Shown one piece after another: positions 3,801-33,300 of a DNA stretch of 64,000 nt. A program made the position numbers and the translations under genes. The notes under the pieces are model-generated. The model searched no databases. It saw only the letters and a program-made list of their open reading frames with translations, and was not told where the DNA came from. Origin of the DNA: Schmidtea nova (lineage: Eukaryota); contig CM097883.1 in the NCBI GenBank assembly GCA_044892505.1, forward strand, positions 191,952,001 to 192,016,000. The letters run 5' to 3'. Numbering within the stretch: position 1 is the stretch's first letter; every line of letters begins with the position of its first letter.

Positions 3801-6392
3801 TGCTAATATAAAAATTTTTCATTATTTGTCATTGTTAGAATATTAGGACAAAAGTTGGTATCGGTCGAGGGTGGGATAAAACGTGTGTGGATGTCGTAAA
3901 AATGTAATAAAAATTCATCGAAATCAATTAAACGCAGCTATTTTATTGCTTATTAAAATGCCGCTTTTTACTCCGTAATGCCAATAAATAAATAATTTAA
4001 GAAATTCCTTCCAAATTAAGTTGAAAAAAATAGAAACTTAAACATTTTGGCACAATTTGAAAATTGTGAACAACTAGTGGTTAATGAACATTATTCTCTT
4101 CGTGTAATGTATAATGTTTTCAAGGACGTGTTTCTCAACACTTAGAAAAAATCTATTAATTTTGTAAATGAAAAACGGTGACTTTAATGACATATTCAAA
4201 ACACTTCAAAAGACTTACGTTCCAGGATGAAGGAAATAAGATAAATTACAAAATTTAATATTCAGATTAAAAATAATAATTATCAAACATCTTAAAATTT
4301 ATCATCACACCCTACTAAAATCGCAAAAATTTTCAATTTACTAGCATAAATGATTAATGTTTTATCAATATTTTACTAATTAATTATAATTTCAGAATTG
4401 CTGGCAGATGGAAAAATCGATAATAATATGATCATGATAACATTATGATCTCAATTAGCATATTAAATGCACCAATCGATATTTATTCATGTGATAAAAA
4501 TAAGATTTCGTATTAATATTTATTCATTTAAGACTAATTTGGAAATAAATAGCTATTATAATTTAGCCTCTTGATTTAACTCAAAGAATCTCATTGTCAA
4601 CCGTTGATTCATTTTAGCAAACTTTTCTGTACACATATTAATGCAAGATATCTACATTAGACTTTCAAATATGAAACAAAATTTAAATTTAACCTCTGTG
4701 TCTTTCATTTTTCTATTTGTAAAATCTGTAATGCATCTGTTGAAACACAGAGAAGAGGCATTGACATAGAGTTGAGCTGCTTCCTTTATTTGTAACTAAA
4801 AAATAATTATTAATGAATTATTTATTGACTAAATTATACCTTTGATAACGTAGCTTCAAAATCACTCTCAGAACTCATTTCATATGAATAACAAATATCA
4901 ATATTAAAACAAACACCTGAAAATAGTAATTTATCTTTCACTATTCTATTTATATTCAAATTCTTTAGGTTAATAAGTGTATTATTTATAAAATCTAGTT
5001 TTTAAAATAATTAAATTATTCAATTTTTACAATTGATTTATTATTTGATAAAATTTAAGATATATTATTTAGATATTATCTAATATAATAATTTGGAATC
5101 ACTGAAATTTCGTTAAAAGTAAAAATTCTAAATAAGTAATTGAAGACTTTCAGTTTCGATTGAGCAGTGATCTTATATTTTCTAATGTTATAGTGTTTTC
5201 TCACAATGCTGCCAGGCCTCTAATTATCTTTGTGACACGATTTAAAGCAACATAATTTAAACCGTAGACAGTACTGTTGGGCTGGCGGAATCGAAAATAA
5301 ATTTTGCTTAAATTTATCAAAAATTAAATATATACAAAGAGAAACAAATTCAAATTTTATGATAAGACATTAATCAGTAAAATAATGCAAAGGAAAATAA
5401 AACAGCAAAGTACCGCATCTCATAAGTCGGTCGAGATAGGGTTGAAAGGATAAAAAAGAGGCATCTCAGTGCAGGTCGGATATTCACACGAAAGACCGCA
5501 CGAGAATTGAATGGGCAAGATCATTGCTTATATAGTGACTACGAAAATCATGGTCAAAGAATAAAATCGTTATCAGAATAAATAAAATAATTTATTAAAA
5601 GTTATAAAGAAAATCCCATTGAAATATCGTAAAAATAACAGAAATAGGTATAAAAATTGATTTAAAATTAAAATTGATTATTTTAATCAATCAATTAATG
5701 CACAAAAAACAATGGATACACACATCATTTATTAGAATTAAAAACAACTATTTTGGAAAATAAATTAAATTATAAAGTTAAATTTATAAAAAATAAATAA
5801 ATACTCACTTATTAAAACTAATAAGTAAGTTTAAATTGCTAATATCATTATATAAATAATAACATAAGTGGGCGTCAGTAAAATTAGTATAAATAGACTC
5901 TGAAAAATCAGTCTAAACTTCCCTCGGCATTAATTTACTGAGAGAAAATTTTGACTTCGTAAGTCAGTTGTAAGGATCGATTTCAGAAGTATGTTTTATG
6001 TTTATGTTGCTGGTGTGTTGGTTAGATTGACAACTGAGATCATTATGATTTTATATGTTAGGGTGATCTCGCCAACATAAAAACATTCCCCCGCTGACAC
6101 CCATGATGTATCCCTAACTACTCATCATGTTGGTACTGTGTCAACGTTGTGAAATGACAAGGCAGGTGAGCAACCTTACGGCTACTATTCCCTTGTTTAT
6201 TCACGGGTCCACCACTACCGATAGAAGGTGTTTGTGGATTTCTTTCGGTCCCACTTATGCTCTTGTCTATTGTCCTAGGGTAATTTAGTCTTAGCGCATC
6301 TGCTGTTCTTCATGAATCCGGGTTTTAGTTATATTCAATTCTCAGACATTCCACAAACAAACAAGACAAGTCAACTCATTCATTTTATACAT

Positions 6393-7043
6393 TTATTTAT
6401 AGTTTAACAATACAGAGGGTCTAATTACATTTAGTAGTTCTCGCTCGGATAGACCACTGAGCAAGTCTACTTCTATTCCCAGGTGATCCGCATATGCGCG
6501 TCTCTCCCTACGTTTTTTCGCTCCCAAGCGATTCCTTCGTTTGGTCCTCTGCGACCCTCGTGGTATGGTTGTGGTCATCTCGGTTGCCGTGGTTACGGTT
6601 ATCTCTTTGTCGGTTTGCGTACTCGTCGTTGCTGATGTCGAAGTTAACCATTTGTTGAAGGTACTCATCCTAATCACTGGACGCAATTGCTCAACGATGA
6701 AATCTTGGGTCGACACCTTTAAATAATTGGCCAACTCTAACTTCAGGGCTGCGACCTCCCTCGCTTGTTCATCGATCGTTCGCTCCACTCTGTATCGGGC
6801 CTGTAAGATGGCTTTAACCCTCTCAGGATTAAACCACGTTGCCTTAATCCGCTGGTGCTCCTCGTTCAGTTGTCTCAAGCGACTCTCGAGGACACGGGAT
6901 CGTGCTCTATGTTCGCGTGCCTCTTGCTTGTAATTTCGAGTGGGATTTTCGTCCATATCTGAGTAATGTATCATTAACCAGGGTATGTATGCATTGTTTG
7001 GTTTCTCAGTCCCTATTTTATTGTTAAACAACTGCACCCTCAT
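6393..7043 (-). CDS. LTR-encoded ORF B, 216 aa, coiled coil plus Thr-rich linker and basic (NLS-like) tail
   Basis: Intact in both LTRs (copy 32542-33192). AATAAA overlaps the stop and is followed by a GT-rich tract. No recognisable homolog. Confidence 0.6.
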   Translation of the reverse strand: MRVQLFNNKIGTEKPNNAYIPWLMIHYSDMDENPTRNYKQEAREHRARSRVLESRLRQLNEEHQRIKATWFNPERVKAILQARYRVERTIDEQAREVAALKLELANYLKVSTQDFIVEQLRPVIRMSTFNKWLTSTSATTSTQTDKEITVTTATEMTTTIPRGSQRTKRRNRLGAKKRRERRAYADHLGIEVDLLSGLSERELLNVIRPSVLLNYK

Positions 7044-7151
7044 CCTTACTCATTCCACATACATCCAAAACCAAAACAAAACCCTTTTAAATGGATACAT
7101 ATATTTTTAATTTACAACAGATGTTCGTACATTGGGGTGTCGTCCTCGTGA

Positions 7152-7787
7152 TCAATTGTATGGTCGTAACTCTTGATCGGCCGGGTTCTCGTCTCGGCGA
7201 ATCCCTGTTTCATGGTATATTTCGGGGGCCGGATTCCAACTCAGTTTGTTTTGATAAATGAACACCTCCCAGAGGCGAAGGTCTTTGGGCTCGGGGTGTT
7301 GATCCACGGAAACACTGCCTGGGGCGTTCGGGTAAACGAAGACTTCCCCAGTGTCACCACACCGAGGCCTGTCTAGCAGCAAATACCCGAGTTGACCGAA
7401 TGCCTGCCCGGTCATCATTCCGGTGCTTAGTACCCAGCGGGGTTGTTGTGTTTCATCTACAAATTGATAGAACCATCTTTCGTATCCATCTTTGGTGGGG
7501 TTCGGGGAGGGCGTCCAATCGACATCGCCTTCCCACCTCAGCTGTAGTTGGAATGCACAGGCGGGAATACTTGCCGCTGTGCTCATATGGGTCCTTGTCC
7601 ATCGACGCAGGTGTCTACGTGCGGAGTTGAAAATTTGTCGTGGGGCCTCCTTCTCTCCTTGGATCTCAGTAGGTAATTTTTGTGTGATGACGGAGCGGAT
7701 GCGCCGTTTCCTCCGTAGAATGTACTCCTCTAATTTGACGGTTAGGGGTCCTACCGGCTCCTTCATGAGATATTCTGTTTTCATCAT
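7152..7787 (-). CDS. LTR-encoded ORF A, 211 aa, unknown function
   Basis: Intact in both LTRs (copy 33301-33936). TTTCAG acceptor 6 nt before the ATG. ATTAAA and a GT-rich tract follow the stop. Confidence 0.6.
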   Translation of the reverse strand: MMKTEYLMKEPVGPLTVKLEEYILRRKRRIRSVITQKLPTEIQGEKEAPRQIFNSARRHLRRWTRTHMSTAASIPACAFQLQLRWEGDVDWTPSPNPTKDGYERWFYQFVDETQQPRWVLSTGMMTGQAFGQLGYLLLDRPRCGDTGEVFVYPNAPGSVSVDQHPEPKDLRLWEVFIYQNKLSWNPAPEIYHETGIRRDENPADQELRPYN

Positions 7788-9247
7788 GTTGCTCTGAAAT
7801 GGAATTTTAGGTTAACTGACAGACTCTATCATCGACCATCGATATTTATGTCGATCAACCTACTTGGTTTATCGTTCTATTAGCCGTAGGCCTTAGTAGC
7901 TCGAATATAATTTACTAGGCCGTTGGTCGCGATGTTCATGTAGGTGGTGACTTTACCTGGTGAGTTGATTCACTCCGCAATTTCAGACGGTTTTAGCTAC
8001 GCTAATTTTGGCTTGTTATTTACAATCAATTTATGTTACATTTAATCTTTCACCGATCATTTTCATTCACTCAACACAGTTCATTTACAGATCATCATCA
8101 GCAACTATCAAGGTTCTCGTCACGGGGAAAATTTAGTCATCCCTTAGTCAACTGCTTTGTTGAGGAACACACTAATTTTATCTACTATCGGGTCTGACTT
8201 TTCATGCCCTTAGTGGATTATATGTATATATCTGGCAGCTCATTCGATTCACTACTGCCCCTTGGTGTTAATGTCTTTCGACCGCGATGTTACGTTTTGC
8301 CTATCTCGATTCTCATCGACTTTTGATGTACTAGCACTCCTTGAAGGTATACCCCCTCATCAAGGTACCTCATGCATATATCTTCCCTTGCGAAATGAAC
8401 TTTTACCTTGAGTTGATTTATGGTCATTAACTGTCACCCGATACCCCGTCATCGTGATGTATAGCGTTTATACTAGGCCGTCGCTACCTTGATTTAGTTC
8501 ATGATCGTTAGGTCTTACTCGATACCCTATGTGCATCCCCCTTTCCCCCCCCATCAAGTATTTAGTAAACTTATGGTCCCGCCGCATCAGCACCTCACAA
8601 CCGATAAGGTGTGTTGCACTGAGAGGCCAAAGAATCCGTCAGGCTGTTAGGCCTCCGGAAAACCTTATGGATTTTAATATGATTATAAAATTATGAGGGT
8701 TTAAATAATTAACACTAAAACTCAACCATACTTGTATTTGGATTCCAATCGGTTTTACAATGTCTTCCGTAAAAGTGACTGTTGCACTGATTTACCTTCA
8801 GTAAAAAATGACATTTTCAAATACTAATTTGACTTCAGTATTTATACTCAACCGGTGTTGTTGGTTAGCCAATCAGCATCGAGTATGTGTGTATGTTTGC
8901 TTCATTTTTTCATGTTGTCGGCTTTTTGCTGCCTAACTTAACTCACCGATTTATTTGGTTAATCATGCGGTAAATTTATTTTTTGTATGATTTAATTTTT
9001 ATTTGATTTTGTTTTAACTCTTCGGTGACATCCGCCCACGCGCTGTAATATTCCGATTTTATTTGCTTCGCATGAGTGAGTTATGAAGATTTTTGTTGTT
9101 TTTATTAATACTCTATTTCTTTTAGATGTTGCCGCCTATTTTATTACACTTTGGTGTTGGTAATTTATTTTGTTGTTATTCTGTTGTAAATTTATTTTAT
9201 TGATTGTATATTATTTTTAGATGCTGCTCGATTTGGCTGGCCCAACA

Positions 9248-9263
9248 TCACTCGGGGTCCCCT
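9248..9263 (-). other. Candidate polypurine tract (imperfect)
   Basis: Minus strand AGGGGACCCCGAGTGA directly abuts the 3' LTR. It is only partly purine. Confidence 0.4.
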
Positions 9264-9447
9264 AAAATTGCGTCCCGCAATTACATGCATATACTTACAT
9301 CAACATGCATAAAAAGTTCGTGACAGAACTTACATGCAAAACCACATAAGGTGGTAGCTTTTATACACATTTTTACACATACACATTGTCATTGTCATGT
9401 TTATATTGTTACACAGTTCAATGTTTCTGGCTCATAGGGGTCGATTT

Positions 9448-9972
9448 TCAGGTCCTTTCACTGGTTGACTGCATTTCGTATCGGGCTTGGGTTTGTCGCA
9501 GATGACTTCTCATTCTTTGTTGGGTTTTGGCTTCTCTTCTGGCGCATCTACACATTATCGTTTGTTGTTGTTTGAGGCTTCTGATTCGGTACAGGGTATA
9601 CGTGATCACTATGATCAAGATGATTGTCAATATGGTCATTGTGACTATTCCCACGATGATCCATCTGTTTCGGATTTCGGATTCGATTTGGGTTTGACCT
9701 TTGATTGGCTTTAGGTGATCTTGAAATGTTCTATGGATTTCTCGGATCTTCTCGATTTGATTGAGTAGGGTTTGTAAGGGTTTGCGATGATCATGACTGA
9801 TTCGCATTTGCCGGATTAATTGTTTCAAGTCTTCTCTGACTTCGTTTAGTTGTTTTTCGATCTCCTGGGATATCTCATTTGACAGGGTTCTTTGGATTTC
9901 GATTGTCGTACAGTTCGTGATTGCTGCTGTTAACATAATAGTTAGGATTGGTAGGGTTTTGAGCCAGTTCAT
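9448..9972 (-). CDS. 174-aa predicted type I membrane protein (signal peptide, helical ectodomain, TM, basic tail)
   Basis: Hydrophobic N-terminus, TM WIIVGIVTMTILTIILIIVITYTLY, basic cytoplasmic tail. CAG 2 nt before the ATG. Confidence 0.75.
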   Translation of the reverse strand: MNWLKTLPILTIMLTAAITNCTTIEIQRTLSNEISQEIEKQLNEVREDLKQLIRQMRISHDHRKPLQTLLNQIEKIREIHRTFQDHLKPIKGQTQIESEIRNRWIIVGIVTMTILTIILIIVITYTLYRIRSLKQQQTIMCRCARREAKTQQRMRSHLRQTQARYEMQSTSERT

Positions 9973-10045
9973 TTCTGATTATTCCACTGATTAATACAGG
10001 TTACATCGATTTGTACATTTTTACACACGGATTTTTCGCCTCTTT

Positions 10046-11206
10046 TTACACATCCGTCTCCTCTGGTTCATGGAACCCTTCATCTTGAAGTTCCATTGGT
10101 GGTGGTGGTATAAACGGTAACCACACCACTCTACTTCTCCACATTGCAATTTCGTCTTGATACGTTCGAGAGATTTGTATTTCTTCATCTAACAGATACT
10201 CCATGTAGTCTGATTGTTCGTTCAGAGTTTCGATTTGTCTTTCCATTTCTTCCACTTTTCTCTTCAGGGCTTCTGTTTCTGTTGGTTCGGTTTCTATTTC
10301 TGGGGTTTCTTTCTCTGCTTTCAGGGTTATTATCTGCTGTTTCAGTTCTTCGTTTTCTTTCGTCAAATTCGTTATATTTTCCTCATACGCTTGGTTTGAT
10401 TCCGCATGTCTTTCCTTCACAGCTTTCAGTTCCATTTTCTTTTGAGTTACTACTCCTTGGTAGCCATTTACATCTCTTTCCAGACTTTCTTTTTCCCTGA
10501 TCAACTTTTGTCTTTCCGCTTCCTCTTTCTGTCTAATGCCTCGCATTTCTCCCTTTATCGTCTGTATTTGCCATTGCGTTTTCTTTAGTTCCTTTGCTTG
10601 TTCTCGAATAAATCGCTGTCGTTTTCGACTCCATTCTTTGTTTGTCTGTTCTTGTCGCTTTCTCTGTTCCAATTCCTCCTTCAATTCGTCTATCTCTTGA
10701 TACAATTTCCAATCTTCGCTGTATGCTGTCCTTCTGATTATCTCTTTGGCTTCTTTATATACTCGTTTCGACTCCATCTTCCAATGTCTCGCTTGAGCTT
10801 TGATAGGTAGTAGTTTTACCTCCATCTTTTCTTCTTGTTTCTCCCTTTCTTCTCTTCGCGTTTTCATCATATTTTTATAATGTTCTGCTTGTTTCCTCAT
10901 CCACTGATAGACCTCTTCTATCTTCTGTCGGCTTCGTGAATTCGTTCCTTTTAGCTTCTCTATTTGTGTTGTCAGTTGTACTATCTCTTTATTCACTTCC
11001 TCGAGTTCTAGTTGATATAACTCCATTCGTCTTTCGCATTTTAGTTTCTCGTAGAAATTGTTTGTCATCACTTCGTGTAATTCTCTGGTTCTTTGTTCCA
11101 CTTCCATTTTACATTTACTTTCGATTTCTCTTTCTATTGCTTCTCGTTCGTTCGCCATCTCGTTTTTCGTTTCATCTTCGATTACATGTTCATTTGCGTT
11201 TTCCAT
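10046..11206 (-). CDS. 386-aa coiled-coil protein ending in ETDV
   Basis: Long E/K/R/Q-rich heptad ORF. CAG 1 nt before the ATG. Confidence 0.8.
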   Translation of the reverse strand: MENANEHVIEDETKNEMANEREAIEREIESKCKMEVEQRTRELHEVMTNNFYEKLKCERRMELYQLELEEVNKEIVQLTTQIEKLKGTNSRSRQKIEEVYQWMRKQAEHYKNMMKTRREEREKQEEKMEVKLLPIKAQARHWKMESKRVYKEAKEIIRRTAYSEDWKLYQEIDELKEELEQRKRQEQTNKEWSRKRQRFIREQAKELKKTQWQIQTIKGEMRGIRQKEEAERQKLIREKESLERDVNGYQGVVTQKKMELKAVKERHAESNQAYEENITNLTKENEELKQQIITLKAEKETPEIETEPTETEALKRKVEEMERQIETLNEQSDYMEYLLDEEIQISRTYQDEIAMWRSRVVWLPFIPPPPMELQDEGFHEPEETDV

Positions 11207-11295
11207 TCTGTAATTTACAAATTTACACTTGTTATACTATATGTTTATTGTTGTTGTCAATTTTTACACTTTATTTACAGGGTCGTTCACTCTGA

Positions 11296-12708
11296 CTACT
11301 CTAACCATCCTTTCGTTGACTTCGTGTTCATCGCTGTTGTACTTGCTTTCTTTTCGATCTCCAACTCTACATATAAGTTGTCGTCGTACAACATCTCCCA
11401 CATTGTTTGGTGTGGTATGAATTTTGGTTCTCCAGTCGCTAATGAACATTCTGTGGTTGGTCTTTTGTAAGCTTCGTGCTTACCATCAATTTTGAATACT
11501 CTCGCTATTGTTTCTTTCGAGTTTTTCACTCTCATTATAGCCTTTGTTTCTAGCGGCCATTCTAATATGTCGTCGTAACCACCTTTACACAACGCGAAGA
11601 ATAGTGACACATGCGTTTCCTTTCCTGATCCATCTCCATTTGGATAAATTCTCATTCGAACTTTGTATCCATTTTTCCACAGATAGAATGGTGGACTTGT
11701 TACCGACACTTGACTTCCTGCTTTTGCTGCCGCGAACTTTTCGTTGAAGTTCTTGATTTTCCATACATATGGTGCAACAGGTAAACTCTCAATATCCTCT
11801 GCATCTCGTATCCACATTTGATGTCGCACGTTTACTTCTTTTACCAATGTCTCTATGACTTTGATTTTCTAAATCATTTTCTCTCTGGTGAGCTCGAATT
11901 GCTCTCTCGTTTCCAGTAATAACTCCGTCATTATCTTCTGAGATTCGATTTCTTTTCCCAGCTTCTGTATGGTTTGTTCCATTCCGTTTAAATTTTCTGT
12001 TAGCATCTCTGCGTGTTGTACCGTCTCTGTTTCTAAATGCTCTTTCATTTCTTTGCTCGTTTTCTTTACTAGACATCCTTGTTTACTCCATACGCACTTT
12101 CTTGGTCTTGCTTCGCACTGTTCCCAATGTTCTCTCAACATCACTTCTTCTCCGGTTCCGCAATTACTTGGACAAATTCCTCTGAATTTTCCGCACACTT
12201 TCTCTTCTGCTACATTGAGATGTTCTGTTTCGATTATCTCTCTTGTCTCCCTTTGTTCACAGTATTGACATTCTATTATTTCTGCTTTGCACTCGTTCTT
12301 GTGACTTTTCAACTGCTTGATGGTTATCGTCTGTTGACACTTTTCACATGTTGCTTTCTTGTTTTCGCATTTCTCCAGATGTTGTCTGAGTTCGATTATT
12401 TGACCTTTCCACTCACATGGTTGGTTTATACATTCTGTTTTTATCTTCCAGATCTCCTTTTGGATTGCTTTGTCTGGTTTCGTCTCGTTGATTAGTAGTT
12501 TATCGCCACACTCTGGACACTTTCTTATCTCACTTTCACTGATTATTTGCAATATACACTTGGTGCACATCCTGCATCCACATTCCGTTTGCCTCGGTTT
12601 TAACAGTAGATTTTTACACTTTACACACGTCACATTTACTCCCCATTGTCGATTTTCTCCTCTTAGAATTTCGATCGTTTGGTAATCTGCTTCGCTTTCT
12701 GCTCTCAT
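11296..12708 (-). CDS. TRAF-family protein (RING, TRAF zinc fingers, coiled coil, MATH) with one in-frame TAG at 11869-11871
   Basis: RING CVKC..LLKPRQTECGCRMC..C..CPEC, Zn fingers, MATH YVWKIKNF..SPPFY..GYK..YPNGDG..HVSLF. ORFs 11869-12708 and 11296-11847 are in the same frame (MI*KIKVIETLVKEV). Confidence 0.92.
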
Positions 12709-12799
12709 TCTACAACAATATTTACATCAATTTCCCCCATATTTTTGATTTTTTCTGGTTCTTTATTTACACGTATTTACACAATTTTCCGCTTATTCA

Positions 12800-13150
12800 C
12801 TATACATCCTCCGTTGAATCTGGCTCTGGATACACGTCTATCTCATTTACAATCCAGCTCGTCCAACTATCCGGTATCTCTTCCTCTTCATGTCTCGTTA
12901 ATCGGTCAATTTCCTCTGCTTGCCAATTGTTCACTTCATTCAATGTTCGGTTCTCGTTCTGTAATTCGTTTATCTGTATTTGTTGGATCTCGATTTTGTT
13001 CATTGCTTCGAAATTACAGTTATGACTTTCGGTTAATAATTGCGTTTTGGCCGTCAACTGGCTCTGTAATTCGTTTATTGTTCTGGCTAGCAGGTCACAT
13101 TGCACTTTCCATCTTGTCATCATCGACATCTCTGTGGTTTCTTGATTCAT
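12800..13150 (-). CDS. 116-aa coiled-coil protein with acidic tail
   Basis: Heptad-like Q/E/N-rich ORF. TAG 7 nt before the ATG. Composition matches the rest of the element. Confidence 0.65.
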   Translation of the reverse strand: MNQETTEMSMMTRWKVQCDLLARTINELQSQLTAKTQLLTESHNCNFEAMNKIEIQQIQINELQNENRTLNEVNNWQAEEIDRLTRHEEEEIPDSWTSWIVNEIDVYPEPDSTEDV

Positions 13151-13273
13151 CGTTTTTCTAGATTATATACATCATTCTCTTTTTTCTGTTTTTATGTTTT
13201 ATAATATTTATACCCATACGTATACGGTTATGCATTGGTTTTTACACTACTATTTACACTCATATTCCACCCT

Positions 13274-16200
13274 CTATACAATCACCACTGGTTTTCCTTC
13301 GTACAGTTCCTCGTCCTCGATCTGTACCCACATCTCTTCATGTTTTGATCGTCTTTTCAGCTCTTCTCGTACTGCTTTTGGTAGTTTTATGTTGTAATTC
13401 GTGACCTTAACTTCTGGCCATTTTACTGCTATGGTCTTATTTCTCATGCCATATCTCCAACATACTATCATGATCGTTATCAGCGGTATACACGCTATGA
13501 ATACTCCCATGCTGATTAATCCCATTATTGTTTTCCCGATGCTCATTTTCGGAGCTTCACTTTGGTTTATCATCACGCCATATTGACCTTTCCATTCCGC
13601 TTCCCATTGTTCATATTGTTGTTGTCTCTGTCTGACTTCTTCGATCACTTTCTCTGGTTCCCATCTTTCTTGTTGGTTTGGTATTTTTTCCTCCTTCTCG
13701 TTTTGTTCTCTCTTCTGACTCAATTCTCGGAATTCTAACTTTTTGATTCTCCTCTTTATCGGCGTGTAATAGGTTTCGCACCTTTCTTGTGGATTTCCTT
13801 GTGCGTCCACTTCTTCGATTGCACACACTTCGTATTCTGCGTTTGTTTTCAACTTCCTCATTTCTACCTCGATTATTTCTCCTTTATCATTTGATGTCTT
13901 TTGACAGTTTCGTGGGGACTTTCCCATACTGTTTGGCATTAATGTCCAACAGATTTCTAGGACTTTTTTATGGATCTTCCATATTATCAACGTTGTTGAT
14001 TCCAGTTCGTTTTCTATTGTCGTCTTTTCTGTTGTTGTCTGTTGAGTTCCTTGACTGTTGGTTGTCGTGATTCTTCTTGACTTTCTTTTCCTCTGTCGAC
14101 TTCTTCCCATTTCAATCGTTCTCGTTCCGTTAATTTGCTCTGGCGTCTTGTACAGTTTGCACTCCAGGCTTCTTTGTATTACTTCTCTTATTCTTCGGAT
14201 TACGCAAATTTCATATGTTTGTCCGACTTCGAATCCATTTAGCTGAAACGGGATTCCTCGTTCTCTCGTTCTGCATTGCGGTATTATGGTGTTGGTCGGT
14301 ATTCCGATGTATTTTCTCCAACACATCCCAATTGTTCTCCGACCAATGTTTTTTATCTCCACGGTTACTACTTCATTCGCAATCATTTCTTGATCTTGTT
14401 TCTTTCTTTTTGGGAACTCAATTATCTCCTTTGCTTGGAACACTTTACACTCGCTTGTTCCTGGTCTGTTTCCGTTTGCTGCCTTTTCCATGAGACATAG
14501 TTCACATTTTTTATCTGTCTCTATTTCTGTTATTTCGATTTCTTCATTTGTCTCTGCTTCCCGACTTTCTCTTGTCTCGCTGATTCCAATTACTTCATTA
14601 TTTCGTCCCCAACATCTTCCATTCGTTGTTCGTTGATCTTGGATGTTTACTAACGTCATCACGCTGATATCTATGTCTTCCATGATTCTCTTAATGAGGA
14701 TTAATATTAATGCTACACATATCAATTCTGGTTGGAATGTTAATTTTCCCGCTGGACTTTTGGTTATTCTTTCTTTCTCTGTTCGGTTTCTGATTCCCTC
14801 TTCTGCTTCGGTTTGATTCTTCTCTTTCTCTGATTCCACTTCTGTTCTTCTCGTTGTCTCTTCGCTTCTTTTCTCAATCCATTTCTGTATCTTCAGCGCT
14901 TCCGTTGCTTTGTATAATTGGCATGCAGTTACTTGAGGTGCTTTTGGTTCTCCTCTCTGCTTTATTGCGCATATTATGTATGACTTTTCTTTCTCCAATC
15001 CTTTGATTTGGATGACGTCTCGCTTCAAATCTGACAATATACACTTCAGCGTATCGTTTTTCTTCAGGTTTTCTTTCCAGCATATTCTTTCGTATACTTC
15101 GTTTCCTCTGATTATCTCTAGCGTGACGTATTGTTTCTTGGCTTCTCCTTGTCCGATGATTGTTATCAATATCGCGATACACAACATTTCCGGTCTTAAA
15201 AGTAGACTTCCTGTTCGTTTTCCATAGTTCGTACTTTCGTCTTTTGTTCCTCTGTTTTCTCGTTCTTCGGCTTCTCCTTTCTTGTCGTTTCTCGTTGGCT
15301 TCGGTTCTTCTTGTCTTTCTCTTTCATTATCCTCCGTTCTTTTGTTGTCATTGTCTTCGTTGTTCTCTTCGTTGTTGCTTTTGTCGTCGAAGTCTCTGTA
15401 ACCACCCCCTGGTCCTTTGAAAATGTCGTCCTCGACATTAATTTCTTCAATCAATCTCTCATACGCTTGAACCGCGAGTGTGCTAGACTCGAATTCACGT
15501 ATTTCCATATCCTTGGATGGTTCTATGTCTTTTAATCTACTTTGCTTGATCGCTTCTTTGGCATTTGCCCATTCATTCACATATTTTCTGAACAAGTCTT
15601 TCCACCCTCCTATTCGTTCCTGTTCCTTTGGATTGTTCGTGAATTTCAAATCTCTTCTCTTCAGGAATTCTTCAACAATCTCTGGCTTTTTGTGTCTTAA
15701 TAACGCGCTTCTGATACACCAATTCTGATTCTGTTCCATATGGTCATTGATCTTGAACGCTGGTTCCTTGGTGACCGGATTCACCCATGTTAGTAATGCT
15801 CTTGTCTTTTCTATGTCGTGTATCATTATTGTTAGACTGAAATTCTTTACGTTATTTGCCAGGTATTCTATGTCCTCTTGTCTCTTGATGGACTTTATGA
15901 ACTTGATCATTTCAAAGTTGTTCCATTGTATTGCGATATCTATGATGGAATTATTCTTTCCATTTTTCCCTTCGATTTTTGCTCCTGCTTCGTATAATTC
16001 ATTTAGCACTTTCCATTTCGTCTTCTTTCTTGCTGCGATTATCATGATTGTATCTCCGTTGTCATCGACCGTATTCATGTCTGCTTCGCACTTGACCATC
16101 GCTTTCGTTATTTCTAGCACTTCGTTTTCTTTCTTTCGACGTAATGCCCAGTGTATCGGTAATCTCCCATCCTTTGATAAAAGGAATGCCACTGGCATTT

Positions 16201-17032
16201 GATTTTTGATCGTTTCTATGTCGACCTCGTGATAATCCCCTTGTGCATATCTGTGCACTTTCTCTGTAGTCGCTCCTAGTATCTCCAATGAGTTTTTATT
16301 CTCCTTGAATTCCGATAATCTTTCTTGTGCTTTTGCTACGATTGCGTCTAGTCTCTCTTGATAGTCAGCTTTTGCATTGAACAACACTGCTTTGCTTCTT
16401 ATTCGTGTTTGCATCTGTTTCATCCGTTGGTCTTGATACACTGCTTGTCTGAAGAATTGTCCATATTTCAATGCTTCTATCAGCTCTTTATATCGCTTGC
16501 TTATTTCTTTGTGCTGCTTTTGGATGTCGTAGAAATGTTTGAAGCTCATATCCGGATTCCATTGCTTATCACACCATTTCTTGATTAATCCGAATAATTC
16601 TTTCTTTCGGTCATCCAACTTGTATTCTCTTGGGTTCTCGCTAACCCGTAACGTATCTCTCGCTATTAACACTGCAAGTGTTTTTGGATCGTATGTTACC
16701 TCTAGTAGATGTTTCAGTAACGCATTTTCTCCCCTTATGAACACTTCATTACAATCTATGACCCACGAATCTCCTTCTGGTCGTTTCCACTTTAGCAGTA
16801 TCCTCCAGGTTTTACTGTTCTTTACTCCGATTGCTTGTTTCATGATCGATCCTCTGGTCAGTTCATCGATTTCCCACGTGGTATTTTCCGTAATATACTT
16901 CAGTATTCGGTGATTCGCTCTGTCAATTGCATGATTCAAGAACGTTCGTCCTTCTTTATCTTTTGCCATCCAATTCGATCTGGTGTTTCCGAATAGCTTG
17001 ATTATTTCATCGTTTCTTCCATGAATGGTCAT
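13274..17032 (-). CDS. Polyprotein part 3: ankyrin repeats, hydrophobic segments, four Cys-containing FN3-like modules, C-terminal TM
   Basis: ANK motifs (GRTFLNHAI, GRLPIHWAL, GDTIMIIAA). Repeats CW...C...Y(E/I)(I/V)C...C. TM IMGLISMGVFIACIPLITIMIVCW. In frame with pol across TGA 17033-17035. Confidence 0.85.
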   Translation of the reverse strand: MTIHGRNDEIIKLFGNTRSNWMAKDKEGRTFLNHAIDRANHRILKYITENTTWEIDELTRGSIMKQAIGVKNSKTWRILLKWKRPEGDSWVIDCNEVFIRGENALLKHLLEVTYDPKTLAVLIARDTLRVSENPREYKLDDRKKELFGLIKKWCDKQWNPDMSFKHFYDIQKQHKEISKRYKELIEALKYGQFFRQAVYQDQRMKQMQTRIRSKAVLFNAKADYQERLDAIVAKAQERLSEFKENKNSLEILGATTEKVHRYAQGDYHEVDIETIKNQMPVAFLLSKDGRLPIHWALRRKKENEVLEITKAMVKCEADMNTVDDNGDTIMIIAARKKTKWKVLNELYEAGAKIEGKNGKNNSIIDIAIQWNNFEMIKFIKSIKRQEDIEYLANNVKNFSLTIMIHDIEKTRALLTWVNPVTKEPAFKINDHMEQNQNWCIRSALLRHKKPEIVEEFLKRRDLKFTNNPKEQERIGGWKDLFRKYVNEWANAKEAIKQSRLKDIEPSKDMEIREFESSTLAVQAYERLIEEINVEDDIFKGPGGGYRDFDDKSNNEENNEDNDNKRTEDNERERQEEPKPTRNDKKGEAEERENRGTKDESTNYGKRTGSLLLRPEMLCIAILITIIGQGEAKKQYVTLEIIRGNEVYERICWKENLKKNDTLKCILSDLKRDVIQIKGLEKEKSYIICAIKQRGEPKAPQVTACQLYKATEALKIQKWIEKRSEETTRRTEVESEKEKNQTEAEEGIRNRTEKERITKSPAGKLTFQPELICVALILILIKRIMEDIDISVMTLVNIQDQRTTNGRCWGRNNEVIGISETRESREAETNEEIEITEIETDKKCELCLMEKAANGNRPGTSECKVFQAKEIIEFPKRKKQDQEMIANEVVTVEIKNIGRRTIGMCWRKYIGIPTNTIIPQCRTRERGIPFQLNGFEVGQTYEICVIRRIREVIQRSLECKLYKTPEQINGTRTIEMGRSRQRKRKSRRITTTNSQGTQQTTTEKTTIENELESTTLIIWKIHKKVLEICWTLMPNSMGKSPRNCQKTSNDKGEIIEVEMRKLKTNAEYEVCAIEEVDAQGNPQERCETYYTPIKRRIKKLEFRELSQKREQNEKEEKIPNQQERWEPEKVIEEVRQRQQQYEQWEAEWKGQYGVMINQSEAPKMSIGKTIMGLISMGVFIACIPLITIMIVCWRYGMRNKTIAVKWPEVKVTNYNIKLPKAVREELKRRSKHEEMWVQIEDEELYEGKPVVIV

Positions 17033-20000
17033 TCACATGAGTGGAGTGATTCCTTCCCAATTCACTTTGTCAATTTCCCCTCCACCTTCGAGTATCATCT
17101 CTACGATCTCTTTCACCTTCTCGTTTCCCCCGTGCTTGATTGCATTGTGCAACGCGGTGTTACCCTCTTTATCCTGTAGATTCAATGTTTGAGGGATTTC
17201 CTCTAGCAGCGTTCTTGTTATTGGATGTGCTGTTCTATCCTTCGCATACTCCATTATATTCTTTCGAACTTCCGTCAGTATATTGAAATCGAACCACCAT
17301 TTCCATTCTGGTATAATTTCTCTGGTCCTCCTGACCAGTTCTTTGATGTCTATTATCTCCCTTCGGTTGTCTTCCAGATTTGTTTGCGGCTTTTGTTGTA
17401 CTCGTAACATATTAATTCTCGCCGTCTGTGATCTTGTCATCACCCGTTTCTCTGGTGATAGAGTTGCTGTCTTTGGTATTTTCCTGCATCGACATGCATT
17501 CACGTATATTGGTCTTACCAATGGATTGTTCACCAATCGTACTCGCACATTATTTTCATTTACTGTTGTTATTTCGTATGGCCCTTTGCCTGGTCGTTGG
17601 AGTTTCTTGACCGTACCGGGTATTATCTCTGGTGTCTCGACTATCACCCAATCTCCAACTTTTAAATCATGTGCTTTCACATTCTTTTTCTGATCATGCA
17701 GATCTTTGTAACTCTCTTGATAGAACTTGATGTTTAGTTCCGCCGTTTTCCAGATTTCTTGCATTCTTTCTTTGAACTTTGTAACGTAATCGTCAACCTC
17801 CATGTACTGTGATAATGGTGGTTGGTATTCCAAATCGATCGGTAAGTTGCAATCTCTTCCGTACATTAGTTGGAATGGACTTAGCTTTGTTGCCGCATGT
17901 ATTGACATTCTGTATGCCATTAAACACAAGTTGATATATTCGTCCCAGTCGGTTTGATGTTTACTGACGTAATTCGACAACATGCGTATCAATGTTCCAT
18001 TGAACCTTTCTGTTTGACCGTTCGTTTGTGGATGGTATGGGGATGTTCGTAATTTCGCAATTCGGAAGTAATTCGTGACTTCGTCTAATATTTCACTCAT
18101 GAAGTTCGTTCCTTGGTCCGTTAGGATTTTCTTGGGTGTTCCGTATCTGCAGCATATCTCTTCTACCAATATTCTCGCGACTGTTTTTGCTTTTTGATCT
18201 GGTATTGCGAATGCTTCTGGGAACTTTGTTAGATAGTCCGTAACTACTAAGATATACTGATTCCCCTTTGAGCTTTCCGGCAATGGTCCAACTACGTCCA
18301 TTGCTATCGTTGCCATCGGTTCTGCGGGTATTGGCATTGGTTTTAGTGGTGTTTTCCACTTCGTTCCGACGTTCTTTCTTGTCGCACAGGTTAGGCAGTT
18401 CTTTATCCATTCTTTCACATCATCTTCCATGGTTGGCCAAAAATACTTTTGTCTCAGTCTCCCGATTGTCTTTTTCGTTGACATATGTCCACCTAATTTT
18501 CCGTCATGATATTGAGTCACGATTTCCTTTCGTCTATTCGCAGGTAAGCACATCAATCTCCGTTCTCCATCTTGTATCAATAACCATCCTTTTTCCATCA
18601 CATATCTATGTTGATATTTCTGCATATGTTCGCGCAACGTTTGGTTCTTGTCGAATATTTCTATTTCCCTTTCTTCCAAATACTTGCTGATCATTCCCAA
18701 CTCCTCGTCTTCGAGTTGATCTTTCCTTAGTTCGCTAAAATCCAAATCCTCCGCTATTAATGCACATATTTTCAGAGCGTTTAGGTTCACCAATTCGGGA
18801 AATGTAAACCTTGACATGCAATCCGCGTTTGCGTTTGCTTTTCCTGCTTTAAACTTTATGAATGGCGAGTATTCCTGCAACTGCATCGCCCAACGCATCA
18901 ATTTACTTGATGATTCTTTGTGTTGACCTAACCATACCAATGGTTGATGATCTGTCGTGATATATATTTCATGACCCCACAATAGGTACTTGAAATGCTT
19001 GATTGCTAATATTATTGCATAGGCTTCTCTTTCCGTGACTGAGTAATTCCTTTCATGCTTCCTGAACGTTCGACTGTAATATCCGATTACTCTTTCCTTG
19101 CCTTCTTCGTCAAATTGGCCTAGTACTGCTCCTGCTGCATATCCACTTGCATCTGTTGCCAACAGAAATGGCTTCTTAAAATCTGGATGGACCAGTATTG
19201 GTGCTGTAATCAGCTTATCTCGTAATGTTTCAAATGCTGCTTGCTGTTCTGCTCCCCATACAAACGACACATCTTGTCTTACCAATTCTTGCATTGGTTT
19301 TGATATTCCTGCATAGTCTTTGATAAACTTTCGATAATATCCACACAATCCCAAAAATTCTTGTATTTGAGTCACTGTCTTTGGTGGTGGACATTCTTTG
19401 ACCTTTTCGATATTCCTTGGATCTGGTTCTTTTCCTTTTGCTGATACGATGTGACCTAAGAATGTCACTTTCTCTTTTGCCCAATCGCACTTTGACGGCT
19501 TCAGTTTCAGTTTCCACTGTCTCAATTTCACGAACACATTTCTGATGTCTTGTAAGTGATCTTCAAATGTTGCGGAGTAGATCAATAGATCGTCGATATA
19601 CACCATGCATTGTTTTATGCCATGTGTCACGAAATTCATGCATCTCTGGAATGATGCTGGCGCGTTTGTTAACCCAAACGGCATTTTCTTGAATTGGTAC
19701 AGATCTCGTCCGATTGTAAATGCTGTCTTCTCTTTATCCTCGTCTTTCATTTTGATCTGCCAATATCCGCTTTTTAAATCCAGTGACGTGAAATAAGCTG
19801 CTCCTTGTAACGTCAATAACATTTCATTTATGTCTGGCAGTGGGTACGTATCTCTTTTCGTAACTGCGTTCAATCGTCTGTAATCGATACAGAATCTCTG
19901 AGTTCCATCCTTCTTTTTCACCATCACCACTGGGAATTGCCAGGGTGAGCAACTAGGTTCGATGACCTCTGCATCTAACATCTTTTGTACCTCTTCTTCT

Positions 20001-21034
20001 GCCACTGCTTTTTGAGCTTCTGCCAGTTTATATGGTCTTAATGCTATTGGCGTTTCGTCCGTCAACGGTATCGTGTGTAAGGTTACGTCACATGTTCCTA
20101 AATCCAGATCTGATGCTGCGAATATATCTTTATATTCCATCAACAGTTTCTGTAACTGTTCTTTTTGTCGTTCGTCTAACAACACACTGTCGATTTTCCA
20201 TGGTAATTCGTCTTTGCTTTTCTCGTTCTTGTCTGGTATTTCGATTTCGGACATGGGTGTCAATTTACCCAATCTCTCATTCTCGTATATTATCTTGTCC
20301 TCTTCGTCAAAGTTTACCAGATTAATCGGTATTTCTCCTTCTTGGTTTATCGTGACCAATTCTCTTGCCATTGGTAATTCTTTCTTTGCTTCGAACTTCT
20401 TACTTGGTTCGAATACCATATCTCCCTTTATTGTTGAATCGATCTTGACATAACACATCATTTCGTGTCTCGCTGGCACTACTATTTGTTCTGCACTTGC
20501 CACTTTAACTTTCATTCTGCAGATTTTTCCTGTTCTGTCTTTTAGCTTCATTGCTCCTAGATCAATTACGATTTCCTTGAACAGGTCTGGCATCAGGTCA
20601 GTTCCAATAATACATGGTACACTCAGCGATGGTATTACAGCGATGTACGTGTTGATTTCTGCACCTCGATGCTTAATTTTTACAAACCATCTTCCGGCTA
20701 CTTCTACTGTCTCTTGACTGCATGCGATTACATGTACATTCGTCTTCTCAATTTCTCCTTGGTTTTTCTCTGGTATATAGTTGATGTCGATCGCCGAAAT
20801 ATTCGCGCCTGTATCGATCATAGCTTCGATTTCTCTTCCGTTTATTTCTACGGTTGTTGTTAAGATCGGTCCCATATTTGTGGACATAACTGCTATCGTG
20901 TGCGTGTCTTCCAACGGGTCTACACTTCTGCATCGTTTTACTTTGCATCCTTCTGGAATTATCGGGTATATGCTTGTCATCGGCATCATCTGCATCATAT
21001 TCGGCTTCGCTTTGTATATCGGTTCGTTATACAT
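17033..21034 (-). CDS. pol: Pol: aspartic protease, RT, RNase H, integrase (HHCC, DDE, GPY), start of ankyrin repeats
   Basis: MIDTGAN (PR), VYIDDLL (RT), ATDASGYAAGAVL (RH), H..GGH..CLTC, MDVVGP, TDQGTNF, GQTERFN (IN), GKGPY, EGNTALHNAI (ANK). Confidence 0.98.
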   Translation of the reverse strand: MYNEPIYKAKPNMMQMMPMTSIYPIIPEGCKVKRCRSVDPLEDTHTIAVMSTNMGPILTTTVEINGREIEAMIDTGANISAIDINYIPEKNQGEIEKTNVHVIACSQETVEVAGRWFVKIKHRGAEINTYIAVIPSLSVPCIIGTDLMPDLFKEIVIDLGAMKLKDRTGKICRMKVKVASAEQIVVPARHEMMCYVKIDSTIKGDMVFEPSKKFEAKKELPMARELVTINQEGEIPINLVNFDEEDKIIYENERLGKLTPMSEIEIPDKNEKSKDELPWKIDSVLLDERQKEQLQKLLMEYKDIFAASDLDLGTCDVTLHTIPLTDETPIALRPYKLAEAQKAVAEEEVQKMLDAEVIEPSCSPWQFPVVMVKKKDGTQRFCIDYRRLNAVTKRDTYPLPDINEMLLTLQGAAYFTSLDLKSGYWQIKMKDEDKEKTAFTIGRDLYQFKKMPFGLTNAPASFQRCMNFVTHGIKQCMVYIDDLLIYSATFEDHLQDIRNVFVKLRQWKLKLKPSKCDWAKEKVTFLGHIVSAKGKEPDPRNIEKVKECPPPKTVTQIQEFLGLCGYYRKFIKDYAGISKPMQELVRQDVSFVWGAEQQAAFETLRDKLITAPILVHPDFKKPFLLATDASGYAAGAVLGQFDEEGKERVIGYYSRTFRKHERNYSVTEREAYAIILAIKHFKYLLWGHEIYITTDHQPLVWLGQHKESSSKLMRWAMQLQEYSPFIKFKAGKANANADCMSRFTFPELVNLNALKICALIAEDLDFSELRKDQLEDEELGMISKYLEEREIEIFDKNQTLREHMQKYQHRYVMEKGWLLIQDGERRLMCLPANRRKEIVTQYHDGKLGGHMSTKKTIGRLRQKYFWPTMEDDVKEWIKNCLTCATRKNVGTKWKTPLKPMPIPAEPMATIAMDVVGPLPESSKGNQYILVVTDYLTKFPEAFAIPDQKAKTVARILVEEICCRYGTPKKILTDQGTNFMSEILDEVTNYFRIAKLRTSPYHPQTNGQTERFNGTLIRMLSNYVSKHQTDWDEYINLCLMAYRMSIHAATKLSPFQLMYGRDCNLPIDLEYQPPLSQYMEVDDYVTKFKERMQEIWKTAELNIKFYQESYKDLHDQKKNVKAHDLKVGDWVIVETPEIIPGTVKKLQRPGKGPYEITTVNENNVRVRLVNNPLVRPIYVNACRCRKIPKTATLSPEKRVMTRSQTARINMLRVQQKPQTNLEDNRREIIDIKELVRRTREIIPEWKWWFDFNILTEVRKNIMEYAKDRTAHPITRTLLEEIPQTLNLQDKEGNTALHNAIKHGGNEKVKEIVEMILEGGGEIDKVNWEGITPLM

Positions 21035-21055
21035 TGATTGAGGTGGAGCGCTGTA

Positions 21056-28168: not shown

Positions 28169-29043
28169 CCCGATTCCACTATCTTGGAATACTGTACTAG
28201 TTTTCTTTGCTTCTAGTTCACCACTTGTTTCTGAATTCGACTCTTCTTTTTCACTACTCTCTGTTTCGTTATCTCTTGATTCGCTTCTTGTTCTGTTTTC
28301 CCTGACTAGTTCACTGTCTATCGTCTCTACTTCGTTTTGAACTTCTAGATCTTCTGGGGTTTCTTCTTGGTTCTCTTTATTACTCGAATTATCGCTGATC
28401 TCTACTTGTTTGTTCTTTTGTTGCTTAGGCTTGTTACCTGTTCTTGTTCTTTTTGCTGCTTTTCTTTCGGCTTCCGTTAAGATTGGTATTATACCTGATC
28501 TTGTTTCTCGTCCCTCAATTTTGTCTATTCCTCAATTTCTTATATTCTCAACTGATTTTCTACTCCGCTTTTGCTTTGCTTCTTCTTTGATTTGTTTCCT
28601 TTGATTGCTCTGACTGCTAGATTGCCTTGAATTGTTTGATTGATTTGTTTCCTTAAAACAAATAATCACTTACACGATACGTCCCCGTTATCGTGTTTCT
28701 CGTCCCTCTCACGGGTGTAGTCATAATTCATGAAGATCCCCATTTTTCCCATTTCCCTTGATTTTAAGTCTATTTAAATTATCTATGCAGTCGTATCAAT
28801 TATCTATTCTTTATCAAATACACCAATTACTTTTCCCCAGTTTCCCAATCACTTTGTCGCTCAGCGCTCTTATTATTCCCTTTACTTTTCTCAGGCTTCT
28901 CTGGCTCTGAGTTCAAATTTCCCCTTATCTGTCGACTACCCTGTTTCTCGACTATTCGCTTTATTTCCTATTCACACTACGTTTACTACTTCATTTCAAT
29001 TCTCATCTCTACTCACCTTTAATTCAACTGACATCTCTCGTTG

Positions 29044-29510: not shown

Positions 29511-29831
29511 CTTTACTTACTCACTTTACTTTACTACTCCTTTGTATGCATACTTTCACCTCATTAGGCCACATAATCAGCTTTACTCGCATTTATCAAT
29601 ACCTAGGTGCGCACCTTCAACTCTCTCGTTATTAATTCGGTTTCTTTCAACCCTTATTCCTCATTATTCGCTATTCATTTTCACTATTCATCATTTATCC
29701 TCATTATCACTTATTCATTTCCATTATCGCTTATTGATCTTCACTATCCGGATAGTTTTATACTTTATTTAGTCCTCATCTGCCTCACTTCGTCGTCTTT
29801 CTCGTGGGCTTTTACTCGATATTTTATTTCG

Positions 29832-33192: not shown

Positions 33193-33300
33193 CCTTACTC
33201 ATTCCACATACATCCAAAACCAAAACAAAACCCTTTTAAATGGATACATATATTTTTAATTTACAACAGATGTTCGTACATTGGGGTGTCGTCCTCGTGA

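Follow-up and report, generated by a model that had tools for sequence, protein, structure and literature searches.

We suggest that the element described here probably makes a separate mRNA for each of its accessory ORFs by splicing in cis a single short leader, encoded in its LTR, to alternative acceptors. The element lies on the reverse strand of the window, the 64,000-nt stretch of Schmidtea nova contig CM097883.1 that we analyzed (Table 1). A conserved YAG before seven ORFs, together with a conserved donor in the LTR, makes cis-splicing of one leader likely, as judged by comparing copies of the element. A sequence-only reading of the same DNA had offered two routes, addition of the host spliced leader (SL) or cis-splicing from one leader donor. 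The conserved donor and the ATG-free leader favor the second of these and leave the first as the weaker option.

Transcription would begin near 34960, and a leader of ~80 nt would be joined at the donor at 34882 to a single acceptor at a time. The nearby targets would be the acceptors of LTR ORF A, LTR ORF B, and the RING ORF, and the distant targets, 22-25 kb downstream, those of the four cargo ORFs that follow the stop of the polyprotein. Splicing would make the ATG of each ORF the first AUG of its mRNA. A common 3' end, located past TM174 or within the 3' LTR, would likely serve all four cargo mRNAs, although some transcripts may terminate in spacers 2 and 3. Unspliced RNA, retaining the hairpins behind the donor, would be the genome. 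In this scheme we infer the splicing events, the RNA ends, and the function of the hairpins. The donor and leader evidence is tied directly only to some spliced product, most simply that of the LTR ORFs 1-2 kb away; we extrapolate from it when we let the donor serve the acceptors 22-25 kb away, which lie beyond three or more earlier ones.

Table 1. Features of the element and of its predicted expression signals (positions in the window)
Feature	Position	Strand	Remarks
Whole element, Burro-like gypsy/env LTR	6008..35398	-	29.4 kb; TG...CA termini; 4-bp target duplication
5' LTR	32157..35398	-	99.75% identity with 3' LTR
Predicted LTR promoter	34956..35024	-	reverse CCAAT 35020-24, TATA 34990-97, Inr-like TCATTT
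Predicted common leader exon, ATG-free	34883..34960	-	3' end is an AATAAA/AATACA-like hexamer
Predicted major splice donor	34877..34882; 3' LTR copy starts 8731	-	GT in 19/20 LTRs
Two predicted hairpins just inside intron	34730..34815	-	7 sequences; both-side changes in 2/23 pairs
Acceptor-type CAG of RING ORF	31615..31617	-	3 nt before ORF; upstream TTAAY branch-like motif
Leader RING-finger ORF, 152 aa	31153..31611	-	PF13920 E=3e-9
Polyprotein frame, ~4,960 codons	13274..28168	-	Gag(CCHC)-Env(fusion)-PR-RT-RH-IN-ankyrin
Spacer 1, 123 nt	13151..13273	-	TGTA motifs, small conserved hairpin, TAG 13158-60, no AATAAA
Cargo ORF, 116 aa	12800..13150	-	likely coiled coil
Spacer 2, 91 nt	12709..12799	-	AATAAA 12762-67, acceptor TAG 12710-12
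TRAF-like cargo (RING, zf-TRAF, MATH)	11296..12708	-	stop at 11869-71 in present copy
Spacer 3, 89 nt	11207..11295	-	AATAAA 11270-75, acceptor CAG 11208-10
Cargo ORF, 386 aa	10046..11206	-	charged, likely coiled coil, no family
Spacer 4, 73 nt	9973..10045	-	candidate acceptors CAG 9987-89 and CAG 9975-77
TM174 cargo ORF, 174 aa	9448..9972	-	likely signal peptide and transmembrane helix, from sequence reading
Candidate shared poly(A) site of cargo cluster	9300..9370	-	TATAAA at 9365, then U/GU-rich tract; inferred
Polypurine-tract region preceding 3' LTR	9248..9263	-	
3' LTR	6008..9247	-	
Acceptor-type CAG of LTR ORF A	7794..7796; 5' LTR copy 33943-45	-	ends 6 nt before ATG
LTR ORF A, 211 aa	7152..7787; 5' LTR copy 33301-33936	-	no family
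Acceptor-type CAG of LTR ORF B	6959..6961	-	2 nt before internal ATG 6954-56
LTR ORF B frame	6393..7043; 5' LTR copy 32542-33192	-	no Pfam family

Architecture of the element

The Burro-like assignment rests on size, long LTRs (3.24 kb), the order of Pfam domains, a single Env-containing polyprotein, and the cargo domains. In Pfam searches, Env (PF24664, E=1e-67) lies in frame between CCHC and RVP, and ankyrin, MATH/TRAF, and RING cargo are all present; BIR and BCL2-like motifs gave no match at E<=0.01. Rfam returned no match across the whole element, the two hairpins included. The ankyrin ORF ending at 13274 is the tail of the polyprotein. In-frame stops at 21056-58 and 17033-35 split the frame in the present copy, and they are copy-specific, with sense codons at these positions in 10/10 and 9/9 other copies. 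RING-zf-TRAF and MATH form a single ORF in all 29 other close copies. The 386-aa ORF had zero homologs among 7,999 near-length candidates, and the Atlas matches of LTR ORF A were uninformative.

Acceptor-type sites before the accessory ORFs

All six YAGs that had been reported 1-7 nt before ATGs are present. TAG 13158-60 ends 7 nt ahead of the ATG of the 116-aa ORF, TAG 12710-12 and CAG 11208-10 end 1 nt ahead of those of the TRAF-like and 386-aa ORFs, and CAG 9975-77 ends 2 nt ahead of that of TM174; the remaining two, at LTR ORF A and the RING ORF, lie 6 and 3 nt away. The sequence-only reading had proposed following the AGs across copies. At the cargo acceptors the AG is intact at all four sites in 30/30 close copies and, scored by eye, in nearly all diverged loci (spacer 1, 11/11; spacer 2, 12/13; spacer 3, 17/18; upstream CAG of spacer 4, 13/13). 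For TM174, the acceptor originally proposed, CAG 9975-77, is joined by a second candidate: The former is kept in 11 of 13 diverged loci and CAG 9987-89 in all 13 (by eye). In the diverged locus L040, with 45-55% aa identity, a YAG lies 2 nt before the ATG at each of the three spacers present. The acceptor CAG is found in ~18/20 LTRs for LTR ORF A (by eye), in 16/17 of the LTRs with a match to ORF B for LTR ORF B, and in 50/50 rows for the RING ORF (40 distinct loci, aa identity down to 65%).

On a 45-sequence tree, the eight AG columns show 0.5 changes per site and the ATG 0.58, versus 3.79 for four-fold sites (P=1e-5). Whole spacers are themselves constrained, at 1.45 changes per site, and purifying selection is evident on both ORFs and spacers. 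Relative to the rest of these strongly conserved spacers, the AG columns are only marginally more conserved (P=0.067), and the spacers may therefore be kept for other reasons. From these alignments we conclude that the acceptor-type sites are conserved and under selection. Uridines are sparser at the cargo acceptors than at the three host acceptors available for comparison, two for the SL and one for cis-splicing. The tree leaves out L035, L039, L041, L044, and L047; rows dropped from the comparisons were L047 (an unrelated 2-kb stretch), L039 (MATH only), L044 at spacer 2 (misplaced), and, for gag, L161 (misplaced), with L154, L157, and L159 having no gag match.

Beyond the six sites reported earlier we observed a seventh, CAG 6959-61, in LTR ORF B; the internal ATG at 6954-56 is likely the true start of this ORF.

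Promoter, leader, and donor in the LTR

The predicted promoter motifs are conserved across 20 diverse LTRs, whose leaders have a median identity of 58%, and the predicted donor lies ~80-130 nt past the predicted start. ATGs are strongly depleted in the leader, with 1 observed versus 33.8 expected in the 20 LTRs and 1 versus 29 in 16 cluster representatives. Over an equal length past the donor there are 41 ATGs versus 30.9 expected, so that the depletion ends at the donor, which is as expected for an exon retained on translated mRNAs. TTG, GTG, and CTG show no depletion in the leader. The hairpins inside the predicted intron may constitute a packaging or export signal. A different donor candidate, AAG|GTAAAT at 8795/34946, was rejected, having been found in only 2/30 copies.

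Spacers and polyadenylation signals

The spacers measure 123, 91, 89, and 73 nt; the earlier description of short spacers stands, with its lower bound of 74 nt corrected by one. AATAAA, reported in two of them, was located at 12762-67 and 11270-75, and it is kept in 41/42 sequences at spacer 2 and 40/43 at spacer 3. It is nearly absent from spacer 1 (1/41 sequences) and spacer 4 (0/30 close copies). The hexamer thus occurs in only two of the four spacers and is not above chance: It is seen in 22-54% of shuffles per spacer, and its density is 5.2/kb in the spacers and 4.3/kb in the leader. The sequence past the spacer hexamers is A-rich (T 0.17-0.30), with no U-rich downstream element; past the best hexamer at RING, TM174, both LTR ORFs, and the LTR donor, T is 0.35-0.50.

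Other motifs are concentrated in the spacers. TGTANATA is found six times in the 580 nt of spacer sequence and a single time in 18 kb of coding DNA, and TGTA is 10-fold enriched, its copies being possible Pumilio/PUF sites. A reading of the TGTA motifs as CFIm sites is doubtful, because planarians are reported to have no UGUA upstream motif (PMC5068929). Spacer 1 of the present copy has a CCAAT and TATAAATA at a spacing like that of the LTR promoter; this CCAAT/TATA pair is lost in the loci that have diverged most, and the YAG stays there.

Host spliced leader and searches for junctions

The host performs SL trans-splicing, as had been noted for planarians: The 3' end of the Schmidtea SL1 exon has 1,075 matches in the genome, and the SL is joined at a genomic AG in both host genes traced (2/2). 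The frame of the SL terminal ATG does not discriminate, since host SL mRNAs likewise have this ATG out of frame (checked by hand). Among genomic SL copies searched for junctions to the cargo starts other than those of TM174 and the LTR ORFs, no SL-cargo junction was found, and 17/17 matches to an SL+ATG pattern are three non-cargo sequences; this DNA search is weak, because the mRNAs that it samples may number no more than ~70. A literature search by SL motif gave nothing relevant.

Retrocopies joining leader to acceptor were sought as well. There were none for TRAF or the 386-aa ORF in 36 genome matches, none for RING (0 matches), and none for LTR ORF A among the 100 listed of 154 matches; 14 candidates from the TRAF, 386-aa ORF, and LTR ORF A searches, inspected in full, contained no junction. 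The one cargo match in the TRAF and 386-aa ORF search (L187) was rejected, as it is a normal spacer that has lost 1 nt. Another locus, L098, lacks spacer 2 through a 96-nt deletion, which is ambiguous: It could be loss of a GT..AG intron and is equally explained by deletion with 1-nt microhomology. The 15 listed joints, in four contig runs resembling genomic DNA, show no splice-type end or acceptor match and have no bearing on splicing.

Alternative explanations

The four 3' cargo ORFs might instead form an SL-resolved operon, with or without cleavage in the spacers, the LTR donor serving nearby acceptors only. Such a hybrid system, in which the leader is cis-spliced nearby and the host SL resolves the cluster of four cargo genes 22-25 kb away, is in our judgment unlikely, although several observations agree with it. 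The host SL is present and used, the 73-123 nt spacing fits the ~100-nt operon mode given for Macrostomum in the relevant part of PMC8629364, AATAAA is kept in spacers 2 and 3, the LTR donor is >21 kb from the cargo acceptors, and Cer1 is described as having an SL1-spliced mRNA (PMC3315495, in the part concerned). However, the cargo acceptors have a potential partner in cis, the conserved donor farther upstream in the same transcript, and an upstream cis donor outcompetes the SL, according to passages of PMC4558846 (citing Hastings 2005) and PMC8629364. Spacers 1 and 4 are almost always without AATAAA, the hexamers of the others are followed by A-rich sequence, and the SL+ATG matches were all non-cargo, which counts weakly given the sampling.

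Somewhat less probable still is that the spacers act without long-range splicing, as internal promoters, short reinitiation introns, or 3' UTR control elements, the YAG being a by-product; in the short-intron version, splicing would place the start codon next to the preceding stop and so allow reinitiation. The constraint on entire spacers, their TGTA and TGTANATA content, and the promoter-like pair in spacer 1 would all fit. Against it, that pair is lost in the loci that have diverged most, where the YAG is retained, and upstream GT sites joined to the acceptors by hand give no in-frame fusion at spacers 2 and 4; nor does it explain why the RING ORF and the two LTR ORFs have the same YAG-ATG layout with branch-like motifs. 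That the layout arose by chance seems very improbable. The background is appreciable, with a YAG 1-7 nt upstream of 118 of the element's 578 internal ATGs (20%), but all seven accessory ORFs have a YAG 0-15 nt ahead, and it is kept where the flanks, and even the offset to the ATG, have changed. Within 1-7 nt, a YAG precedes 6/8 ORF starts examined (binomial P ~1e-3, hand calculation), the exceptions being gag and LTR ORF B at its first ATG. Cis-splicing from the LTR leader remains the reading that we prefer.

Relation to known systems

Burro elements fill planarian genomes, and their cargo is apoptosis- and ubiquitin-related. In S. mediterranea, a species with Burro1-4 and with transcriptomes, knocking down piwi de-represses BURRO1 (PMC8532177). 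Burro/GYPSM1 are giant gypsy-like LTR elements of planarians, and the section of PMC6431247 devoted to them describes features common with the present element: a length of ~30 kb, a single polyprotein of ~5,000 aa with Env between Gag and PR, ankyrin, MATH/TRAF, and RING motifs, accessory ORFs, and many copies. Unlike the elements of that section, the present one encodes TRAF in an ORF of its own, within a cluster of four genes that follows the polyprotein, and BIR and BCL2 went without Pfam detection. The same section is silent on accessory ORF expression, and we found no account of its mode for Burro in the literature searched, a scope that did not include Grohme 2018 and its supplement.

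As in complex retroviruses, one predicted donor is LTR-proximal and acceptors lie just before accessory ATGs. HIV-1, for example, has a major donor and acceptors before its accessory genes. The present element departs from complex retroviruses in being gypsy-like and in having seven acceptors distributed across 25 kb, of which two are LTR-internal; no Rev-like factor was identified, and LTR ORFs A and B have no family. Foamy virus, in the part of PMC3694450 that treats it, has its major splice donor inside the LTR beside a poly(A) signal; the predicted donor here also adjoins a poly(A)-like hexamer, which however lies just upstream of the donor and not downstream. Like Cer1 of C. elegans, the element is an LTR retrotransposon whose host uses an SL, and it has accessory-mRNA splicing, which here is predicted from sequence. 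Cer1, as the relevant parts of PMC3315495 and PMC10309623 present it, has one spliced accessory mRNA, with and without SL1, the SL being near the 5' end, and no operon-like cluster. With the SL operons of C. elegans and Macrostomum, as outlined in part of PMC8629364, the cargo cluster shares same-strand ORFs ~100 nt apart and an acceptor before each ATG, but it differs in its conserved upstream cis donor and in that no more than two of the four spacers have poly(A) context.

The map of one donor and seven acceptors predicts exact junctions that RNA data already in existence can test. It also suggests that the gene regulation of complex retroviruses was reached independently by a gypsy-like element. 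Were the SL used instead, a retroelement would be carrying an operon.

The genomic SL matches examined sit in LTRs of another element, which carries the SL together with 5' ends of host mRNAs. This LTR family preserves host trans-splicing events in DNA and may offer a route of gene capture, and it may matter more than the map of cargo splicing.

Architecture of the element

The minus-strand LTR element has LTRs that are 99.75% identical to each other, flanked by a 4-bp target duplication. Pfam identifies a leader RING ORF and, in the 3' cluster, RING, zf-TRAF and MATH domains; the large frame between them has a CCHC knuckle and a viral fusion glycoprotein (E=1e-67) and, after these, PR-RT-RH-IN and ankyrin repeats. 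The published description of planarian Burro elements (PMC6431247) agrees with this architecture, and the element is Burro-like. A genome search gave 1,182 candidate copies, of which 36 were scored and 30 fetched. The two stops splitting the polyprotein are sense codons in 10/10 and 9/9 other copies, and TRAF is a single ORF in all 29 other close copies (about 95% identical).

Coordinates of features in the window
Feature	Position	Strand	Observation
Burro-like element	35398 to 6008	-	
Transcribed LTR part	34950-33950; 8800-7800		Hypervariable with both LTR ORFs; promoter block conserved
Rejected donor candidate	34946		GT site in just 2/30 copies
RING-gag leader	29036-29528; 29776-30371		Six ~51-nt repeats and a 19-nt tandem array
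Open frame upstream of gag Met	28169-28690	-	121 open codons without ATG, here and in most close copies
Donor-like GTAAGT	28673		
Spacer 1 hairpin	13205-13225	-	5 bp, conserved in 7/7 with one G-U to G-C change
Gypsy-like element	38422-43349	+	Separate, small; 239-nt LTRs (99%), broken gag-pol
Second LTR family	~47800-49125	-	SL exon about 150 nt inside the LTR
Non-LTR-like element	54054-61105	+	1,497-aa ORF behind two ORFs
Small-ORF cluster	61736-63951		138, 154 and 96 aa, behind 13-nt TGACTCA-containing repeats

Acceptor-type sites precede the accessory ORFs

All six YAGs that the sequence-only reading had placed just before ORF starts were recovered. A YAG lies 1-7 nt upstream of 118 of the 578 internal ATGs of the element, against which its occurrence before 6/8 ORF starts has a P of about 1e-3 (hand calculation). 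The AGs are intact in 30/30 close copies, which says little given the 95% identity of these copies; we therefore fetched 19 diverged loci bearing MATH. Cargo order is unchanged wherever several ORFs remain, and the YAG is kept (by eye) in 11/11, 12/13, 17/18 and 13/13 alignable spacers 1-4, respectively. Indeed, the diverged locus L040, at 45-55% amino acid identity, has a YAG 2 nt before the ATG at all three spacers that it retains.

A tree built from 45 sequences gave 3.79 changes per site at four-fold sites (n=323), 1.27 at codon positions 1-2, 1.45 at other spacer sites (n=304), 0.58 at the ATG and 0.5 at the AG (n=8), and the base preceding the AG changes between C and T only. These rates indicate selection on the cargo ORFs and on the entire spacers. 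Relative to four-fold sites the AG is conserved (P=1e-5), but only at P=0.067 relative to other spacer sites; it thus ranks towards the conserved extreme of the range, without sharp contrast to the rest of the spacer. Elsewhere in the element, the RING ORF acceptor and its TTAAY motif recur in 50/50 rows (40 distinct loci), a pyrimidine-rich YAG precedes LTR ORF A in about 18/20 LTRs (by eye) and a YAG precedes LTR ORF B in 16/17. Every accessory ORF (7/7) therefore has an acceptor-type site, and comparison across copies indicates that these putative acceptors are real sequence features under constraint.

A conserved donor-type site and ATG-poor leader in the LTR

We aligned 20 LTRs, whose ORF A is about 29-97% matching to that of the window. 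All share a CCAAT-TATA-Inr block, and a predicted donor column 100-167 nt after the TATA is GT in 19/20, mostly AAG|GTAHGT. From TATA+36 to the donor there is a single ATG in 1,706 nt (33.8 expected), or 1 versus 29 when each 70%-identity cluster (16 in all) contributes a single LTR, whereas an equal length past the donor holds 41 (30.9 expected). TTG, GTG and CTG are not depleted in the leader, and TAG is low both before and after the donor. We interpret the ATG-poor stretch as most likely a leader exon retained on translated mRNAs, because ATGs would not be purged from an outron that SL replaces, nor would an unspliced RNA drop the constraint at the donor. An AATAAA-like hexamer directly adjoins the predicted donor, recalling how U1 controls poly(A) in the LTR of foamy virus (excerpt of PMC3694450), and two hairpins are predicted downstream of the donor, for which an Rfam search gave no match. 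At the amino acid level, LTR ORF A is 65% identical between copies in which RING reaches 95-99%; such variability beside a conserved promoter block suggests LTR exchange or fast evolution. Between RING and gag, the ~51-nt repeats contain donor-like GGTGAG sites and cores that resemble hairpins, and 13/14 aligned sequences keep a block with the GTAAGT and a T-rich AAG.

Cis-splicing versus spliced leader addition

Cis-splicing of one LTR leader to the alternative acceptors is probably the best explanation of these patterns, and the support for it is stronger at the LTR and RING ORFs than at the distant cargo; the element would then work like a complex retrovirus. A search of genomic DNA for a leader-to-acceptor retrocopy, covering the TRAF, 386-aa, RING and LTR ORF A acceptors (the last for 100 of 154 hits), found none. 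One copy, L098, lacks spacer 2: a deletion of 96 nt, out of frame, runs up to the TRAF acceptor and fits either a GT..AG loss in which one base differs or a deletion with 1-nt microhomology; since a deletion without GT in another copy (L033) also ends at an acceptor, we give it little weight. No description of Burro splicing was found in the literature search; the texts or supplements of Grohme 2018, Rossi 2014 and Zayas 2005 may bear on novelty.

The host does use SL: a 21-nt sequence from the 3' end of the SL exon (Fig. S6 of PMC10899757) occurs 1,075 times in the genome, versus 0 for the reversed control, and marks the host as likely a Schmidtea-like planarian; SL replaces a U-rich outron at a genomic AG in both captured mRNAs that were traced to genes. 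Moreover, an LTR-element mRNA, Cer1, is able to take SL1 (excerpt of PMC3315495), and spacers 2 and 3 keep their AATAAA (41/42 and 40/43 sequences). SL addition at the distant 3' cargo acceptors is nonetheless unlikely. Spacer 1 has the hexamer in only 1/41 sequences, and spacer 4 has it in no close copy (0/30) but in 7/12 diverged loci, where it adjoins the ATG (by eye); the two AATAAAs of the sequence-only reading are in place but not enriched over chance. Past the spacer hexamers the T content is 0.17-0.30, and the best sites following RING, TM174 and the LTR ORFs have 0.35-0.50; planarian cleavage sites are described as U-rich (excerpt of PMC5068929). Finally, upstream cis donors are reported to outcompete SL (passages of PMC4558846 and PMC8629364). 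A pattern covering the starts of the 116-aa, TRAF, 386-aa and RING ORFs found no SL-cargo junction among genomic SL copies, its 17 matches all being three non-cargo sequences; this test is weak, because 23 distinct mRNAs in 27 elements suggest roughly 70 overall (hand estimate). Of the earlier proposal, host SL trans-splicing or cis-splicing from one leader, the constrained acceptors and host SL stand and the LTR donor and ATG-poor leader favor the cis option, whereas membership of the SL operons is disfavored, as the acceptors would probably be paired with the conserved predicted donor upstream.

TGTANATA, a putative PUF element, also abounds in the spacers: it occurs 6 times in 580 nt, compared with once in 18,330 nt of coding sequence. 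The 3' arm of the spacer 1 hairpin resembles SL RNA and the LTR donor hexamer.

An SL-carrying LTR family and neighboring elements

In a second LTR family (also L051-L097 and L217-L223, loci elsewhere in the genome), the SL exon precedes the 5' end of a host mRNA, which varies from element to element. All 30 fetched SL matches, of 1,075 exact ones, share upstream sequence, and none is an SL RNA gene. The fetched pairs are 1.4-1.9-kb direct repeats in 7/7 cases, 99.4-100% identical; one, L221, has (AAT)n on its flanks, TG..CA at its ends, and sites resembling a PBS and a PPT. The 1,200-1,400-aa ORF is pieced together from FHA, HSP90 and ubiquitin, and RT and integrase are absent in 3/3 examined. 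These LTRs likely arose by template switching onto co-packaged SL mRNAs, the shared SL completing strand transfer. Our literature search found no account of SL-capturing LTRs, although the same three papers may bear on this, and the family is possibly more novel than the acceptors before cargo. Among the neighboring elements, the 1,497-aa ORF likely has an N-terminal protease and RT, as read from its translation. The small-ORF cluster recurs as an insertion in L040 (7336-9516) and is likely another mobile element.
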